Below are positions 21,001 to 33,000 of a DNA stretch of 64,000 nucleotides, piece by piece. The stretch spans positions 832,001-896,000 of the forward strand of contig CAXXLV010000001.1 in assembly GCA_963664305.2 (NCBI GenBank), read 5' to 3'. This DNA comes from an uncultured Aliarcobacter sp. GTDB taxonomy: Bacteria > Campylobacterota > Campylobacteria > Campylobacterales > Arcobacteraceae. Position numbers: made by a program. Position 1 is the first letter of the stretch; each line of letters opens with the position of its first letter.

Positions 21001-24000
21001 GCTACAGCAATTTTAGGATTTTTTTCAAAATAAATAGAAGGAGTTAGACCAGTTTCTTTATAAATTGCATAAGCTTTTTCTATTCTATATCTATCATTTT
21101 TTTCAATTTTCTGCATATACTCTTTATCTAATGAATATAAAAGTTCATATGCTTCATTTTGAGGTAAATCAAGCTTTATTTTTGATTCAATACCTAAAGA
21201 TAAACCTTCTGTTAGAGCTTTTAGATAAAAACCTGTTCCACCAACGATAATTAAATTTTTAGCATTGTCTAAAGCATAATTTTTTGCAGTTTTGTAAAGT
21301 TCAATAAATTTTATAACATCAAAATCAACATTGGGATAAACTTCATCTATACCAAAATGAATAATATCACCTCTTTCTTCAACAGTTGGTTTTGCAGAAA
21401 CAATATCTATTTCTTTATAAACACAAAGAGAATCAAGAGATAAAATAATCGAATTTGTTTTTGATGCAATTTCTAAAGATAAAGCAGTTTTCCCTGAGGC
21501 TGTAGAGCCAATAATTGCAATTTCTTTCATTTATTTTGTTTTCGATTCTTTACAATCTTCAAGTTTTTTATTAAGTTCATTTATCTCTTTTTCTTTTTGA
21601 ATTAAAGTTCTTAATAATTCTGATACATCATTTGTACTTGAATTTGAAACTTCATTTTCAGTTTTTGTAGCACAAGCTGTAAAATTGAATAAAAACAGTA
21701 AACTTAAAATTAATAACAAATATTTTTTCATGAAACTCTTTTTTGTATAAAATATACTAGATTATAACTAGAAAAAGTTTAATTTTTATTTTTTTAATAA
21801 TATCTTCGATAAAATCCCAAACATGAATAAACTGATAAAAAAACTTAATGATTTCAATGAACTAGTGATGTTCAAACACTCAATTTTTTCACTACCTTTT
21901 ATTTTTATTGCAATGGTAGTTGGTGCCAAAGGTTGGTTTGGTTTTAAACTTTTAATTCTTGGTGTAATGGCAGCTTTAACAGCTAGAAATTTTGCAATGG
22001 GATTTAATAGATTTATGGATAGAGATATAGATGCTTTAAATCCAAGAACTATAAACAGACCAAATGTTGATGGAAGAATCAGTCCCACTTCAATGTTTAT
22101 TTTTGTATTATTAAATGCAATTGGATTTATTGTTGTTGCCTATTTTGTAAATGATTTAGCTTTATATTTATCTATACCTATTTTGATTATCATTGGCTCA
22201 TACTCTTATTTTAAAAGATTTTCATTTTTAGCTCATATTATTTTAGGAATATCTTTAGGTTTAGCTCCTATTGCAGGAGTTGTTGCTGTTACTGAAACAA
22301 TTCCTTTTTGGGCAATAATTTTAAGTCTTGGTGTAATGTTTTGGGTTGCTGGATTTGATTTACTTTATTCTTTACAAGATATAGAAGTTGATAAAAAACT
22401 TGGACTTCACTCTATCCCATCAAAATTTGGTGTTGAAAAAACTATGTTCATTTCAAAAGTTTTTCATGCTTTAACTGTATTTTTTTGGCTTTTATTTGTT
22501 GTGTTATCTGATAGTTCTTATTTTGCTTACGTGGCAGTTGTTTTAAGTGCATTGATGCTTGGTTATGAACACTATTTAGTAAATAAAGATTTCAAAAAAA
22601 TTGATAAAGCATTCTTCACTGTAAATGGATATTTAGGGATTATATTTTTTATTTTAATTGTACTTGATAATATCTTTTTTTAAATCATTACAAAAAATTT
22701 AAGTATAGCTATGCTAATATTCCAGCCTATTTTTTAGGTGCGTCTGTAGTTCAACTGGATAGAATGGCCGGTTTCGACCCGGTAGGTTGTGGGTTCGAAT
22801 CCTACCAGGCGTGCCACTATTCCTTAAAAACCCTTAAAATAAGGGCTTTCAAATACTCTCATTTTTTTTAGGTGTCAATTCGGTGTCTAATGGTGTCAGA
22901 ATTTTTTTAAAACAATTTCCGAAATTCATATTCTGAATTGGTATATATTGTGAATATTTTTCAAGAGTTATTTTTACATTTTCGTGTCCAGCAATTTTAC
23001 TCACATAGTTTATATCTTCCCCATTACTAATTAGAGTTGATATAAATGTTCCTCTTGTTTGATGTAGATTTCTATATTCTACATTTGCTTTTTCTATTAT
23101 TGGTATCCAAATTTGTTCTCTTATTTTTCCAGCTGAATGAAAATGTTTATTTGTTCTTGTTGTTAAAAATACAAATGAATTATGATTCCCCGTTATTATT
23201 TTTTGATTTTCTAAAAAAGGAATTAAAGGTTCTATTATTGGAATAATTCTCTTGCTTTTAGTCGTTTTCAAAATATCTTTTATTTGCCCGTTTACAATTT
23301 GTCTCTTTACTGTGATAGTTCTATTTTCAAAATCTATACAATCCCAAGTTAGACCTATACATTCTCCTATCCTTAATCCAGTCATAAAAAGAACGGCTAT
23401 TAAGTTTTTATCTTGATTGGTAGCCACTGATAAAATTTGAATTATTTCTTCCGTTTTAAAAGGTGTTAGTTCTATTCTTTTAACTTTTGATTGTTCAGTT
23501 TGTTTTATTGTTTTTACCTTTTTAATAGGATTTATTTTAATAATTTCATTTTCAATAGCATCTTCAAACATTGTATATAACAATCCCCTAATTTTTAAAA
23601 TATAGCTTTTAGATAATTTATACTCTTTTTGAAGATTGTTTTGCCATAAAGTAATTTCAGAAGGTTTTACTTTATCTAATGTTTTATGCCCAAATGTTTC
23701 CTTTATATATTTATCATAATTCTTTTGGTGTCCATATATAGTGCTTTGACATCTACCACCTTTGTGTAATTCAAAAGAAAAATTCATATATTCTTCAACA
23801 GTTGGAATTTTTTTGTTTTGGTTTAATTCTCCATTCATTAGTTTGTATTGTAATATAGGAAGAATTTCATTTTCTGCTTTTTTATAATTAGCTTTTGTAT
23901 TTTCCATTTCAAGAGGTTTTCTGAATCTTTTTCCATTAATTGTATAGTTTACCCATAACCATTCTTTTGTTTGCCCTTTTTTATTTTTTACTTGTTTTAT

Positions 24001-30000: not shown

Positions 30001-33000
30001 ATTATATTTTTATTGTCTAATTTATAGTGATAAAAGTTTTGAAAATAAAGAAGAACTTAGAAGAATTACTATTGAGTTAAAGAGATTGAGTGTGGAATCT
30101 AATATGGATATGGGAGACAGAGCAGAGGCTCTTTATCTAGCAAAGTGTGAGAATAAAGAAGAAGAATCATTAAGATTAATAAATGATGCAATTGCAAAAT
30201 ATCCAGATAGTTATTACCCGTTATTAACTAAATTTGATATTGCACTTAAATTTTATAATATAAATGAAATGGAAGATTGTATTTTAAAACTTGAAAAATT
30301 TAATGGTAAAACTTTATCTAAAAAAACATATACTAAACAAAAAGCATATTTTATTGCATTAAAAGAGAAAAATGCAACGAAAGCTAAACAGTTAATTATT
30401 GATGATTTAAATAAATATCCTCAGGAAGCAAAAGATTTGATTTTAGAAAAAATTGATTATTTAGCAAATAAATTAAAATAAAAATCTATAATTCAATTGG
30501 TGTCAAATTGGTGCCTTTAAATACCATTTATTAGCTTCATAAAATATAATTAATATTTTAGGAGTAATGACTAAATGGTATTTATTAGTTAAGAGTTCGA
30601 TTCCTATAAAATCCTACCAGGCGTGCCATTTTTAAATCTAACACAATCCAAGATAGTCTATAAAATCCCGATAAAATCAAGCTTCTTGTTAAATATTAAT
30701 CTAACTTATGCTAATGTAATCTAATTAAATATAGAAAAAATTAGGGCGTTTGTTAGGGCGTAAGCCAAAAATATTGAAATTATCAAAAATTTATGCCCAG
30801 ATATTTTAATAGAACATTGTAAATACAGAAGTTAAGAGGATATTCAAAAATCTTCAAACTATTTCTATTTATTTTTTTATTTATATTATTCTAAAAAATG
30901 AAAATTTATGAATATTTAATTATTAATTGTAATATTAGATTATTTAATTATTTTTGAATAAATAAGCATTCAAAAATGTATTTAAAAATAATTAGTTTTA
31001 AGTTTTTCTTTAGTGTATCTTGTGTTAGAATATATCCCAAGTTAGAAAAACTCTAATTCAAGGATAATATTTGCCATATCTTGTTTCATCAATAATTGCA
31101 ATTGTTTCAGCTTTAATAATTTTACTTACTAGATATGAAGCTGATGACAGTACAATAACAAGTGAACTTGATAGAATGAAATCTATGTTTATAACAATGG
31201 ATGGATTTGTAAATACTTATATTCAATCTGGTGGAACTTTATCAAGTATAAATTTTGAGGAATTGGATAAAGCGGGTATTTTATTATCAAATATGGAAAT
31301 AACTCCAGTAGCAGATACAAATTCTAGTACTGGTGAAAATAAAACTACAACAAAATTTCCAAATAGTGAAGTGATTTGGCAAATTATACCAAATATAAAT
31401 GACACTAGTTCATATAAACTTTTAGTAGATATGTCAAAAGCTAGTGCATTGATGAGTAAGGCTATTTTCTCAGAAAGTTTCTCAGGTCGAGAATTTTGTG
31501 AAAAGATGCTTTTTGGTACATTTGATCAAAATGGAAGTGCATATGTTGAGGGAACAAAAGATTTTGGAACAACAGGCACAACAAAAGACGGAATTTTTGT
31601 TTGTATAGTTTTTAAGTGATTTTTGGTGCAACTAAAATAATAGTTGTTGTATAATAGGGCGGTTGGTAGGTAAACTTAAATTTAATAAAGGGGAAAGAAA
31701 ATGCCACAGTTGATAGCTATGATTATCGTAGTAGTTGGAGCAATGATTTATATGTTCCAAACATTTGGAGGAACTGGAGATAAAATCGAAGGTATTGCAC
31801 AAAAAACAAGTATTATTACTGAAATTAATAATATAAAAGATGGGGTTAAAATCGCAGCTAAATCAGAGCAAATTGCAAGTACAGCATCAGGTGATAAAGT
31901 TAACACTTTAGAGGGATTAGCAGCTCTTTCATATTTTGCAGAACAAATTAATACACAATTAACTGATACAAATAATAATGCAAATAATGCAAATATATAT
32001 AATGCTATTTCATTTGGTGGTGGAGTTGTATCTGCTGCAACAAATACTAGTGATATGCAAATTTCTTTAGTAGCACCAGCTGCAGTTGGTACTGTAAAAA
32101 GAGTACCTGGAATATTTGTAGATTTTTCTAAAGGTGGTTTATCTTCAAATGCTGCATTTTTAGAATCACAAATAGCAAGTGATTTAGCTGCTGTAGCTTA
32201 CATAGATAGAACAGCAACAAGTGCTACAGCAAAAAGTGGAGTAATTAGTTCAACAGGTTCATCTATTGAACAACGAACACCTGCTATTGGTACTGTAGAT
32301 GCTGATGGGAAGCCTGTTGATCCTACAGCTGCTCAATTAGGTGATGGAATGTTCATTCTTTATTTTAAAGATTTTGGTTCAGACGAAGTAGTTCAATAAT
32401 ATTTAGGCTTTTGCCTAAATATTATATTTTAAAAAACAAAACCTAAGTGCTAAGTATTAGCATTTACTTTTTGTTTTACTCTTAAAAAAGGTTTTTTTCT
32501 AATGTTGGGAAATATATGGCTATCATCGGCACTTATTGTTACAGCTATATTTTCTGCAGGTGCTATGTATAAATCTTATAGTGATATTCAAGAAGCAAAA
32601 CAAATCCAAGAACATTATGAAATAATCTCTGAAATCAAAACTTTATTAGCCAAGCAATACAATAAAAATCCAGATGAAATAACACGTGATGATATTATTG
32701 CCAATTTACCAAAAGGTGAAAACTGGGGAAAAGTTCTTCTTCTTGATAGAAATAAAGATAGCAATCTTTCTAATAAAGAGTTAGTAAATGAAACTGGAAA
32801 TTTTGAGATAAGTGAAGATGAAAAGTTAAAATTACTTGCACTAAAAGCAAAACTAAAAGATGTTATTGATGTAACTTCAATTGAACCAGTTGATAAAAAA
32901 TATACTTTTGAAGTTGGGAAAGTTGAGAAAAATAGAGTATTAAATGATATTGATATTGAAGAAAATTTAACAAAAGCAATACATTTTTTGGCAGATGAAA

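Follow-up and report, generated by a model that had tools for sequence, protein, structure and literature searches.

How might a small island that encodes an integrase, a rolling-circle replication initiator (Rep) and a single FtsK-like ATPase spread between cells? This question is raised by positions 22798-30628 of a 64,000-nt stretch of DNA from an uncultured Aliarcobacter sp. (contig CAXXLV010000001.1, positions 832,001 to 896,000; hereafter the window). The segment is a 7.8-kb insertion in the 3′ end of tRNA-Arg(TCG), and its borders are exact. The target tRNA gene (22740..22816, + strand; ARAGORN; Rfam tRNA, 3.4e-11) is present as a single copy in the assembly and is kept intact after insertion. 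Its 3′ end forms the attL core, a 19-bp direct repeat (22798..22816, +), and the exact second copy, the attR core (30610..30628, +), begins 129 nt past the last base (30481) of an 821-aa ORF. The window has no further copy of the 19-mer (0 matches in 100 shuffles), and the 7,812 bp from start to start are the inserted length. The sequence rightward of attR is the one that follows the tRNA in island-free relatives: in six genomes of the same genus the tRNA 3′ end joins the post-attR sequence directly, and in G019 and G016 the gene blocks of the two flanks are separated by 75 and 172 bp, respectively. The G+C content is 22.7% in the island vs 28.2% and 26.1% in the flanks, and no circular form was observed among the fetched contigs. 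The survey's finding of an element at the 3′ end of this tRNA, bounded by a perfect 19-bp repeat, was borne out by ARAGORN, the exact repeats and the empty sites, and its gene calls (integrase, HTH_17, FtsK-like, 83-aa, Rep and TIR-NLR proteins) were reproduced by ORF and family searches.

The integration module occupies the left end. The tyrosine integrase (387 aa; 22849..24012, -; PF00589, 1.6e-21; Phage_int_SAM_3; Arm-DNA-bind_2; phrog_1, 3.8e-59) is 83-84% identical to the integrases found at the same tRNA in loci L004, L006 and L023, and is accompanied by a 106-aa excisionase-like HTH_17 protein (24022..24342, -; PF12728, 4.8e-7; PHROG excisionase families), which matched TIGR01764 at 0.0018, under the cut-off of that model. 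The pattern GGTGYCAAWTYGGTGYC had only two matches in the 64 kb (shuffle mean, 0.01), one per island end and in like orientation: GGTGTCAATTCGGTGTC within the 3′ end of int (22871..22887, +) and GGTGTCAAATTGGTGCC just inside the right end (30499..30515, +). Both are candidate arm-type integrase-binding sites, and a sequence similar to the left one is found at the equivalent place in L004, L006, L023 and L047. In L023 the integrase at this tRNA is 84% identical but the core is only 34-36% identical and inverted, and other loci carry DUF6538 recombinases of 577-657 aa or an integrase of 421 aa; integrase modules have been swapped between relatives. On the other side of xis, a divergent intergenic region (24343..24512) holds 3/4 of the window's TGTACAC copies, together with variants; it looks operator-like, although TGTACAC is no commoner in the window than expected by chance and only its clustering stands out. 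The ORF beyond it (24513..24947, +; 144 aa, probably 134 aa from an internal ATG) had no match in Pfam, PADLOC, PHROG or NCBIfam, is predicted to be charged and coiled, and has only two homologues in 5.8 billion proteins (80-83% identity). Neither this ORF (24513-24947) nor the hairpin and box described below (24954-25019) had been listed in the survey, and the core order, the integrase swapping and the survey of VirB4 and Zot in carriers are likewise new.

The claim that a core of Rep, small protein and FtsK-like protein recurs in Campylobacterales with differing integrases and cargo was supported by a comparison of 35 family loci. When the count was restricted to the 21 loci with at least 1600 nt upstream of the ATPase gene, Rep and the small protein lay directly upstream of it, in like orientation, in 19. 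The spread previously given for the ATPase, 15 of 400 other Campylobacterales genomes and 6 of 39 within the family, rose to 18/400 and 7/39 with a profile search. Four parts make up the family core: a Rep of the two-tyrosine HUH type, the 83-aa orphan, the ATPase with its membrane anchor, and a cis site. The island itself is very probably a true member of this Campylobacterales family of integrative rolling-circle elements. Its cargo is, as already reported, an 821-aa TIR-NLR anti-phage protein (28016..30481, +; PADLOC TIR-NLR over residues 1-818, 2.4e-232; TIR_2, 5.6e-15). That the family ferries defence genes could be upheld in part: defence genes are common neighbours of the core in the family loci, and element borders are defined for the present island, L023 and L052 only.

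The Rep (392 aa; 26576..27754, -; Phage_GPA, 9.7e-13; REP_ORF2-G2P, 1.8e-5) retains the catalytic motifs of a two-tyrosine HUH endonuclease, and the residues T92, T94, P96, H169, H171, Y246, K249, Y250 and K253 are invariant in 16 sequences. The genome also contains an inovirus-like prophage that carries Zot, a secretin, an integrase and a Rep homologous to that of the island (28% identity; hhalign probability, 99.6%). Directly after the island rep lies the gene of the 83-aa protein ("p87"), whose stop overlaps the ATPase start (ATGA). The ORF was called at 26309-26572 (-), but all homologues start at the fifth codon, so that the protein is encoded by 26309..26560 (-). It is conserved in 26 of the 28 family loci with at least 350 nt upstream, and among 1.84 billion proteins it has 117 representatives, none of them with a Pfam family. 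These features bear on a first alternative, namely that the island derives from, or is a satellite of, an inovirus-like phage, in which Rep would be gene II, the 83-aa protein a gene-V-like ssDNA-binding protein, and the hairpin and box the packaging signal and origin, with the ATPase replacing Zot/pI and the coat proteins and secretin coming from a helper phage or the host. In filamentous phages gene V follows gene II, as the small gene here follows rep. In addition, for two members of the 83-aa family that share only 31% identity, a language-model comparison placed Putative_G5P nearest among the named clusters (0.88 and 0.90) and DUF3127 next, which is a weak lead. Against this, none of 22 members gave a significant HMM match to G5P or DUF3127, no PDB match was obtained, and coat-like genes are missing from both the island and its colinear five-gene relatives. 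Furthermore, the ATPase matches FtsK_SpoIIIE rather than Zot, Zot is found in only 4 of 19 carriers vs 49 of 382 other genomes, and among 50,697 phage records the only relatives were Firmicute FtsK-like proteins, with none in IMG/VR. We consider this origin improbable.

The FtsK/SpoIIIE (TcpA-like) ATPase (429 aa; 25023..26312, -; PF01580, 2.9e-13; phrog_1358, 1.4e-37) carries N-terminal membrane segment(s), with hydropathy maxima at residues 10-22. Its Walker A (GESGSGKS) and Walker B (DE) motifs are invariant in 27 sequences, and in the same comparison no C-terminal extension able to hold a DNA-recognition domain was found. One possibility is that this protein exports nothing, and instead retains the excised replicon in the cell, by aiding its segregation or by handling dimers at the membrane, or is a defence or exclusion component. 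Partial PADLOC matches to the SspH C-terminus (1.9e-14) and to mad8 (3.4e-11), the richness of the islands in defence cargo, and the frequency of FtsK-like genes without known role in Bacillus prophages are consistent with such a function. The PADLOC matches are, however, limited to the generic P-loop region, and whatever the cargo, the gene accompanies the cis site, Rep and the small protein, and not any defence partner. No small rolling-circle replicon is known to need a membrane translocase, and a non-exporting role seems quite improbable.

The survey had mapped no ori or oriT, a caveat that is now partly lifted by a strong candidate, a conserved hairpin and box beside the ATPase gene. The box is a 27-nt sequence (24954..24980, -; CTTGACCTATTTAATTAAAAGTGTCAG) composed of CTTGAC, an AT-rich stretch and GTGTCAG. 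Of the 30 family loci with at least 150 nt of downstream sequence, 27 have it no more than 800 nt past the ATPase gene (26 of these no more than 91 nt), in every case behind a hairpin. The box occurs once in the 2.78-Mb genome. Across 401 Campylobacterales genomes its pattern matched 21, vs 2 for the reversed control, and in nine of the ten genomes with a box at 0-1 mismatch the match adjoins the ATPase gene. The interrupted hairpin (24982..25019, -; stem of about 16 bp, loop of 4 nt; DNA folding energy, -13.4 kcal/mol, z -4.4) ends 1-3 nt before the box. A comparable hairpin is at the same place in 21/21 aligned relatives (z -2.5 to -11.8), and compensatory changes at 7/7 pairs of the inner stem show that the sequence varies while the pairing is kept. 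In Rep proteins of this type, the cleavage site follows CTTG. The Rep genes of L051 and L065 share a related island of CTTGAC, AT-rich sequence and GTTGTGGAC that is identical at 33 of 34 nt, whereas these genes are otherwise 66% identical; since L065 lacks the ATPase gene yet has the motif, the motif goes with Rep. The minimal origin of pC194 RepH contains TCTTGATAATAA (PMC7072734). The box is a candidate nick and recognition site for Rep, as an origin of replication and/or transfer. The hairpin, which terminator prediction did not call, could also stop transcription, and a promoter or operator role is conceivable for the box, which lies 15-25 nt ahead of the xis start in five loci.

In a typical oriT a hairpin lies immediately 5′ of a conserved site, and this arrangement fits a further alternative, that of an integrative mobilizable element in which Rep would act as the relaxase on a hairpin-box oriT and the TcpA-type ATPase would dock the Rep-DNA complex to the mating pore brought in by a conjugative plasmid or ICE, the island being just inherited vertically when no helper is present. 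As to the ATPase, the PDB matches included FtsK (2e-13) and, over a longer stretch, the "DNA translocase coupling protein" 6o1w (2e-11), and its nearest plasmid relatives are FtsK/SpoIIIE proteins of Clostridium perfringens plasmids (104 of 141 records, at most 27% identity). The gene set is that of compact streptococcal elements, with TcpA, an RCR-type relaxase, Xis and Int at tRNA or ribosomal-protein genes (PMC5357655, PMC5704250). TcpA and FA-type pores are reported from Firmicutes only (PMC5357655), and tcpA lies upstream of the relaxase gene in those elements, whereas the order here is rep, small gene, ATPase, and the conserved 83-aa protein is without counterpart in the streptococcal elements. 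Also in favour of this alternative, VirB4 is present in 41 of 401 genomes of the order and a TraG-D_C match in 3 of 19 carriers. However, the host genome (99.96% complete) gave no match to VirB4, VirD4, AAA_10 or TraG-D_C, and VirB4 was found in 0/19 carriers, which is weak evidence, as the chance expectation was only about 1.9. VirB4 is rare among the seven module-holding families (6/210 genomes), and the module is present in 0 of 76 genomes of two VirB4-rich families (VirB4 in 23/38 and 10/38), a contrast that rests mainly on these two families and on PF03135, which misses some VirB4 types. Mobilization by a visiting pore seems unlikely, though less so than the other two alternatives.

The reading that we favour, with slightly less than even confidence, is that the island excises, replicates by the rolling-circle mode and, through its ATPase, exports its DNA with no T4SS resident in the cell. 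Int and Xis would excise the element as a circle via the 19-bp cores and the arm-type sites, and Rep would nick the box beside the hairpin, so that rolling-circle replication maintains the excised form and makes single strands. The 83-aa protein, probably co-translated with the ATPase, may handle or target the replicated DNA, which the ATPase would pump across the inner membrane, so that the island could spread in a way akin to AICE transfer or Thermus "transjugation", and Int would insert it into the tRNA-Arg of the recipient. A precedent in a diderm is TdtA of the tRNA-integrated ICEth1, described as a T4SS-independent DNA donor ATPase of FtsK/HerA type (PMC5365140). An outer-membrane route is not encoded in the island, and this counts against T4SS-independent export, as do the short C-terminus of the ATPase and the TraG-D_C matches in 3/19 carriers. 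Moreover, TraB-type double-strand transfer is described for mycelial Actinobacteria only and TcpA for Firmicutes only (PMC5704250, PMC5357655).

The resemblance to Gram-positive elements noted in the survey was confirmed as a parallel with AICEs and streptococcal mobilizable elements (PMC3429521, PMC5357655, PMC5704250). The cargo itself is an ordinary PADLOC TIR-NLR, with a full-length match, an N-terminal TIR_2 domain and nothing unusual in the predicted protein. AICEs are likewise small and tRNA-integrated; they encode an integrase and an excisionase, a Rep of rolling-circle type and one transfer protein with an FtsK/SpoIIIE domain, but no relaxase or T4SS (PMC3429521), and the island Rep matches RepSA weakly (0.0062). 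Unlike AICEs, the island resides in a diderm of the Campylobacterales rather than a mycelial actinomycete, lacks spd, kor and pif genes, has an ATPase too short for the C-terminal DNA-binding part of TraB, carries a cis site resembling a nick site instead of a clt of 8-bp repeats, and has the 83-aa core protein in addition. Among the streptococcal elements, classes 1-4 and 7 of Coluzzi et al., which have TcpA and a relaxase of RCR type, also hold a compact module in which an FtsK-like single-domain protein is combined with an initiator of the RCR type, a tyrosine integrase and xis; they frequently swap integration modules and accrete at one site (PMC5357655), and the island ATPase profile matches a solved coupling protein. 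The island differs from them in its gene order, its Phage_GPA/G2P Rep family and a host phylum without FA-type T4SS, with VirB4 in none of the 19 carriers. With inoviruses and satellite prophages it shares the Rep family of the resident prophage, a small gene after rep and a hairpin by the putative origin, but it lacks coat genes and Zot, its ATPase is FtsK-like with an N-terminal anchor, and Zot co-occurs in few carriers. ICEth1 of Thermus thermophilus, compared by description and not by sequence, differs in its NurA nuclease and restriction genes, the lack of a Rep and its seemingly non-replicating nature; like the island, it is a tRNA-integrated element of a diderm with a cytoplasmic-membrane ATPase of the FtsK/HerA family, which is reported to expel DNA without a T4SS (PMC5365140).

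An earlier survey had proposed that the island is inserted in the 3′ end of a tRNA-Arg gene and bordered by a 19-bp direct repeat, and both features were recovered. ARAGORN placed tRNA-Arg(tcg) at 22740-22816, and its 3′-terminal 19 nt were present in exactly two copies in the window, at 22798-22816 and 30610-30628, with no match in 100 shuffles. This tRNA gene is single-copy in the assembly and is intact despite the insertion. When 12.7 kb around the island were searched against 40 relatives, the tRNA 3′ end was found to join directly the homologue of the sequence that follows the second repeat in six genomes of the same genus (G001, G003, G007, G010, G014 and G021). 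The uninterrupted junction between tRNA and right flank could be read in three fetched loci (L008, L009 and L011), and in genomes G019 and G016 the gene blocks of the two sides are separated by 75 and 172 bp, respectively. The G+C content of the island is 22.7%, versus 28.2% and 26.1% in its flanks. In addition, a 17-nt motif, GGTGYCAAWTYGGTGYC, has only two copies in the 64 kb, one just inside each island end and in the same orientation, and similar sequences occur at matching positions in relatives whose integrase is of the same type; we read the pair as putative arm-type integrase sites. The island is real and well bounded, and that it is a mobile element is very probable.

Seven ORFs occupy the interval between the repeats, and every gene family assignment of the survey's finding was reproduced by our family searches. 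The products are a tyrosine integrase (PF00589, 1.6e-21) whose N-terminus is of the arm-DNA-binding type, an excisionase-like protein (HTH_17), the FtsK/SpoIIIE-family ATPase (PF01580, 2.9e-13, 50.2 bits versus a 24-bit cut-off), a small protein that matches no family and has 83 aa if its start is the one common to the homologues, Rep (26576-27754; Phage_GPA / REP_ORF2-G2P), and a TIR-NLR cargo protein, recognised by the PADLOC model over residues 1-818 of 821 (2.4e-232), with an N-terminal TIR_2 domain (5.6e-15). The remaining ORF, absent from the survey's finding, lies at 24513-24947 on the plus strand; it belongs to no family and has only two homologues, at 80-83% identity. The 170 bp between xis and this 144-aa ORF (24343-24512) contain three of the four TGTACAC heptamers of the window, together with variants, and this cluster may be an operator array. 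The Rfam search of the island returned nothing besides the tRNA. Outside the island, the chromosomal right flank (34786-46444) encodes a T2SSE ATPase of the PilB/GspE type (40342-42033) and two large RCC1-like repeat proteins; this region is probably what had been described as a pilus cluster.

The claim that the core of Rep, small protein and ATPase recurs in Campylobacterales beside tRNA genes and with varied integrases was upheld by a set of 35 loci with a clear ATPase relative, drawn from genomes and metagenomes. ATPase relatives numbered 104 at the 90% cluster level, the named ones coming from genera such as Sulfurimonas, Sulfurospirillum and Halarcobacter. Rep and the small protein are encoded directly upstream of the ATPase gene, in the same orientation, in 19 of the 21 loci whose upstream sequence reaches 1600 nt or more; the exceptions are L025, which has a much larger fused ORF, and L051, where the order is ATPase, a different small gene, then Rep. 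In the window the stop of the small gene overlaps the ATPase start. Motif I (FxTxTLP), the HUH histidines H169 and H171, and Y246-x2-K-Y250-x2-K were invariant in all 16 aligned Reps, and with these motifs kept Rep is predicted to be a competent two-tyrosine rolling-circle initiator. Its best family is Phage_GPA; the match to the Pfam model of RepSA, which with RepAM and Prim-pol makes up the initiator types of AICEs, was weak (0.0062, 16.2 bits, under the 34-bit cut-off). The IMG/VR search gave distant matches only, and two loci from it (L030 and L031) were discarded as irrelevant: they are the ends of tailed prophages from Firmicutes, in which an FtsK-like gene lies beside a replication-relaxation-like gene. 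Plasmid and phage collections held relatives from Firmicutes only, at 27% identity or less, and no terminal overlaps, i.e., no circular contig, were found among the fetched loci.

The ATPase motifs GESGSGKS and Walker B DE are kept in 27 of 27 aligned sequences. Two hydrophobic segments lie near the N-terminus, a strong one with its centre at residues 10-22 and a weaker one at about 41-60, and the C-terminus extends about 35 residues past the last conserved motor block. In the PDB, the ATPase profile found similarly good matches in FtsK (2e-13) and in the 'DNA translocase coupling protein' 6o1w (2e-11), the latter match being longer. We consider a non-transfer role of the ATPase very unlikely, and the label 'transfer module' for the core is reasonable but unproven.

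The family of the 83-aa protein had 117 representatives in a set of 1.84 billion proteins, almost all of them 70-110 aa long. No relation was found in Pfam (tried on 22 members), PDB or NCBIfam, its 57 distant relatives gave nothing informative, and the host genome holds no second copy. Among named language-model clusters, those nearest to two members that share 31% identity were 'Putative_G5P' (0.88 and 0.90) and DUF3127 (0.87 and 0.88), scores of 0.87-0.90 being at or below the level where chance matches are common. A gene-5-like single-strand binder, as the language model and the position right after rep hint, is a lead and nothing more.

A fourth component of the core was found on the DNA itself. 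In nearly all relatives a G+C-rich hairpin, whose sequence varies by locus, lies directly 3′ of the ATPase stop, and at a fixed distance after it follows a conserved 27-nt box, CTTGAC(T/C)TAtTTaATAaAAAGTGTCAG; in the window the hairpin is at 24982-25019 and the box at 24954-24980, both on the minus strand. The box was located at most 800 nt downstream in 27 of the 30 loci that extend 150 nt or more past the gene, and at most 91 nt downstream in 26 of these. In an alignment of 21 non-redundant copies, compensatory double changes were observed at seven of seven inner-stem pairs. When folded singly as DNA, all 21 gave an interrupted hairpin of 14-18 bp whose end is 1-3 nt short of the box; z ranged from -2.5 to -11.8 (-4.4 for the window copy). 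The box is single-copy in the 2.78-Mb genome, and a degenerate box pattern had matches in 21 of 401 Campylobacterales genomes, versus 2 for the reversed control. Ten genomes contain the box with at most one mismatch, and in nine of them it stands beside the ATPase gene. The tenth, G314, has a remnant of a family member (L077, G314:C8, 8808-8892) next to an integrase-like ORF and a tmRNA; all that survives of it is the hairpin, the box and, from the ATPase gene, the final 57 nt, so that a 'box-only' element was rejected, and its similarity to L053 ends exactly at the box end. An intrinsic terminator was also considered for the hairpin and set aside, as the terminator scan made no call.

The box is not an att site: it is internal in the three delimited elements (those of the window, L023 and L052) and is identical over three integrase types, and therefore it is a component of the core and not part of integration. 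A box-related motif accompanies Rep even where the ATPase is lacking. The Rep genes of L051 and of L065, a locus of the host genome, are 66% identical overall, yet their poorly conserved 5′ part shares an island of 33/34 nt, TCCCTTGACTATTTATAAAAAAGTTGTGGACATA. Initiators of the RepH kind cleave after CTTG, and a similar arrangement of nick site, AT-rich spacer and recognition sequence is seen in the phiX174 origin. The minimal origin of pC194 RepH contains TCTTGATAATAA, according to an excerpt of PMC7072734. Hence, hairpin and box together (24954-25019, minus strand) were taken as a candidate origin of replication and/or transfer. Hairpin similarity was uninformative when set against Rep, small-protein or ATPase identity (Spearman 0.40-0.52); two informative pairs, confounded by physical linkage, suggest that the hairpin travels with the small protein and the ATPase rather than with Rep.

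Parts of the islands are exchanged between relatives. A 6.7-kb element of Aliarcobacter cryaerophilus CNAC030 (L023) occupies the same tRNA between 17-nt repeats, and its integrase is 84% identical to that of the window, whereas its core is only 34-36% identical and is inverted relative to int. A 7.6-kb element in tRNA-Arg (L052), bordered by an imperfect repeat (16/18), has the colinear order rep, small gene, ATPase, box, xis, int, an arrangement common to four more loci. Within this delimited element a homologue of TraT, the surface-exclusion lipoprotein, is encoded at 929-1531 (9.1e-33). Other loci carry recombinases of 577-657 aa with a DUF6538 N-terminus, or a 421-aa integrase, and their contexts are tRNA-Asn, Ser, Met, Leu or Gln, or tmRNA. 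The window and L035 have nearly the same hairpin and 78-79% identical small proteins and ATPases, but Reps of just 50% identity, and therefore Rep itself appears to have been exchanged within the core. Compared with both L034 and L035, the window Rep is 47-50% identical, against about 80% for the small protein and ATPase, and it bears a lysine/serine-rich insertion of about 19 aa around residues 180-200. In L045 (12825-18457), the tRNA-Gln 3′ end is repeated 5.6 kb from the tRNA, beyond the integrase of the family element, which suggests two elements in tandem at one tRNA.

The survey had also proposed that the family ferries defence genes. A PADLOC-recognised neighbour of the core was observed in 7 of the 13 loci examined, the window included. 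Among the genes adjoining the core are Hachiman HamA/HamB and PD-T4-5 in L013, PD-T4-5, PDC-S01 and a PrimPol-helicase in L017, AbiTii and a Panacea antitoxin in L022, a GmrSD-like protein in L024, a type I R-M system in L045 and PD-T4-9 in L053. The association stands, and the position inside the repeats is established for the window alone. L053 further contains, at 274-5037, a gene for a 1587-aa protein with Tubulin/FtsZ, uracil-DNA glycosylase and HEPN/RES-N domains, beside the family element and a second integrase. Among Arcobacter-like bacteria, environmental and food-borne, the family appears to act as a vehicle of anti-phage systems, those adjoining the core being TIR-NLR, Hachiman, AbiTii, GmrSD-like, type I R-M and PD-T4-9, and the candidate origin offers a handle for finding further islands of the family and makes the island more testable.

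We then considered how such an island might move. Export by the ATPase independently of a T4SS is a possible reading, and the one that we tentatively adopt. The host genome (99.96% complete, searched except for 8 kb) gave no match to VirB4, VirD4, AAA_10 or TraG-D_C. Carriers, defined by the ATPase at E 1e-20 or better, were 19 of 401 sampled Campylobacterales genomes; VirB4 was detected in 41 of the 401 and in none of the 19 carriers, where about 1.9 would be expected by chance. In the seven families that hold the module, VirB4 was found in 6 of 210 genomes, and in the two VirB4-rich families (23/38 and 10/38) the module was found in 0 of 76. The AAA_10 matches in carriers were the ATPase itself and one weak match, and TraG-D_C was present in 3 of 19. 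Zot was detected in 53 of the 401 genomes, namely in 4 of 19 carriers and 49 of 382 others. With VirB4 in 0/19 and Zot in 4/19, carriers do not regularly harbour a conjugative pore or a filamentous helper. These counts, from kin-structured samples and single Pfam models, weaken helper dependence, and mobilization by a helper, which the resemblance to helper-dependent streptococcal elements would favour, is unlikely.

T4SS-independent export can be extended to a minimal DNA-donation machine in a double-membraned bacterium, in which Rep would nick the hairpin-box, the 83-aa protein would coat or target the displaced strand, the single FtsK-like pump would export it, and the recipient would take it up via natural competence or a host secretin. 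This full scheme is doubtful; if it were true, the island would be a five-gene vehicle spreading anti-phage genes in Campylobacterales.

A satellite derived from a filamentous phage would account for a Rep of the Phage_GPA / gene II kind, as in inoviruses; unlike inoviruses, the island has no Zot on any ORF, and small hydrophobic conserved (coat-like) ORFs were found neither in it nor in its five-gene relatives, and such an origin is quite improbable. The same genome contains an inovirus-like prophage (C2, about 1567300-1576000; L064, 5356-13965) with small ORFs, a 486-aa ORF, Zot (PF05707, 1.1e-16), a secretin (3.6e-27), a tyrosine integrase and a Phage_GPA Rep that is homologous to the island Rep at 28% identity. 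A third Rep-bearing mini-element of this genome (C2, 1253768-1257716; L065) has neither the ATPase nor an adjacent tRNA; its genes encode a CopG-like protein of 159 aa, a protein of 88 aa, a Rep that matches the family profile at 3.6e-57, an HTH_17 protein and an integrase, and the 83-aa protein profile did not match its 88-aa protein.

No published description of the Campylobacterales Rep/small protein/ATPase family was found in the literature searched, supplements aside, nor were reports of Arcobacter genomic islands with an integrase and FtsK; for AICE or TraB-like FtsK elements in Gram-negatives, only actinobacterial work and general reviews were found. By gene content the island closely resembles the AICEs, which according to PMC3429521 comprise int, xis, a Rep for rolling-circle replication and a single Tra with an FtsK domain; as in AICEs, its integrase is site-specific and its att sites lie in a tRNA gene. 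However, its host is not a mycelial actinobacterium but belongs to the genus of Aliarcobacter cryaerophilus CNAC030, none of its seven ORFs falls in the spd, kor or pif families, and its ATPase probably lacks the recognition domain of TraB, the C-terminal part that binds a clt locus in double-stranded transfer. A parallel gene set, including a single FtsK_SpoIIIE-domain protein, is that of the compact streptococcal mobilizable elements, which, in excerpts of PMC5357655 and PMC5704250, carry TcpA, an RCR-type relaxase, Xis and Int, TcpA being reported there as confined to Firmicutes. In those elements tcpA is upstream of the relaxase gene, whereas the island and 19 of 21 relatives have rep, small gene, ATPase, with xis and int after the ATPase in five loci; furthermore, they would be expected to share their hosts with a helper conjugative element that has a T4SS, whereas VirB4 is absent from the island carriers (0/19). 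DNA transfer by a single FtsK-like protein has been described in Actinobacteria, and coupling proteins of the TcpA type are known from Firmicutes. That Campylobacterales genomes lacking a T4SS combine this gene logic with a conserved small protein and a clearly conserved cis site makes it testable whether small islands can be moved by double-membraned bacteria in the absence of a conjugative pore. The nearest functional precedent for the island is TdtA of ICEth1, a tRNA-integrated element in a diderm for which an excerpt of PMC5365140 describes T4SS-free DNA donation by an FtsK/HerA-type ATPase.
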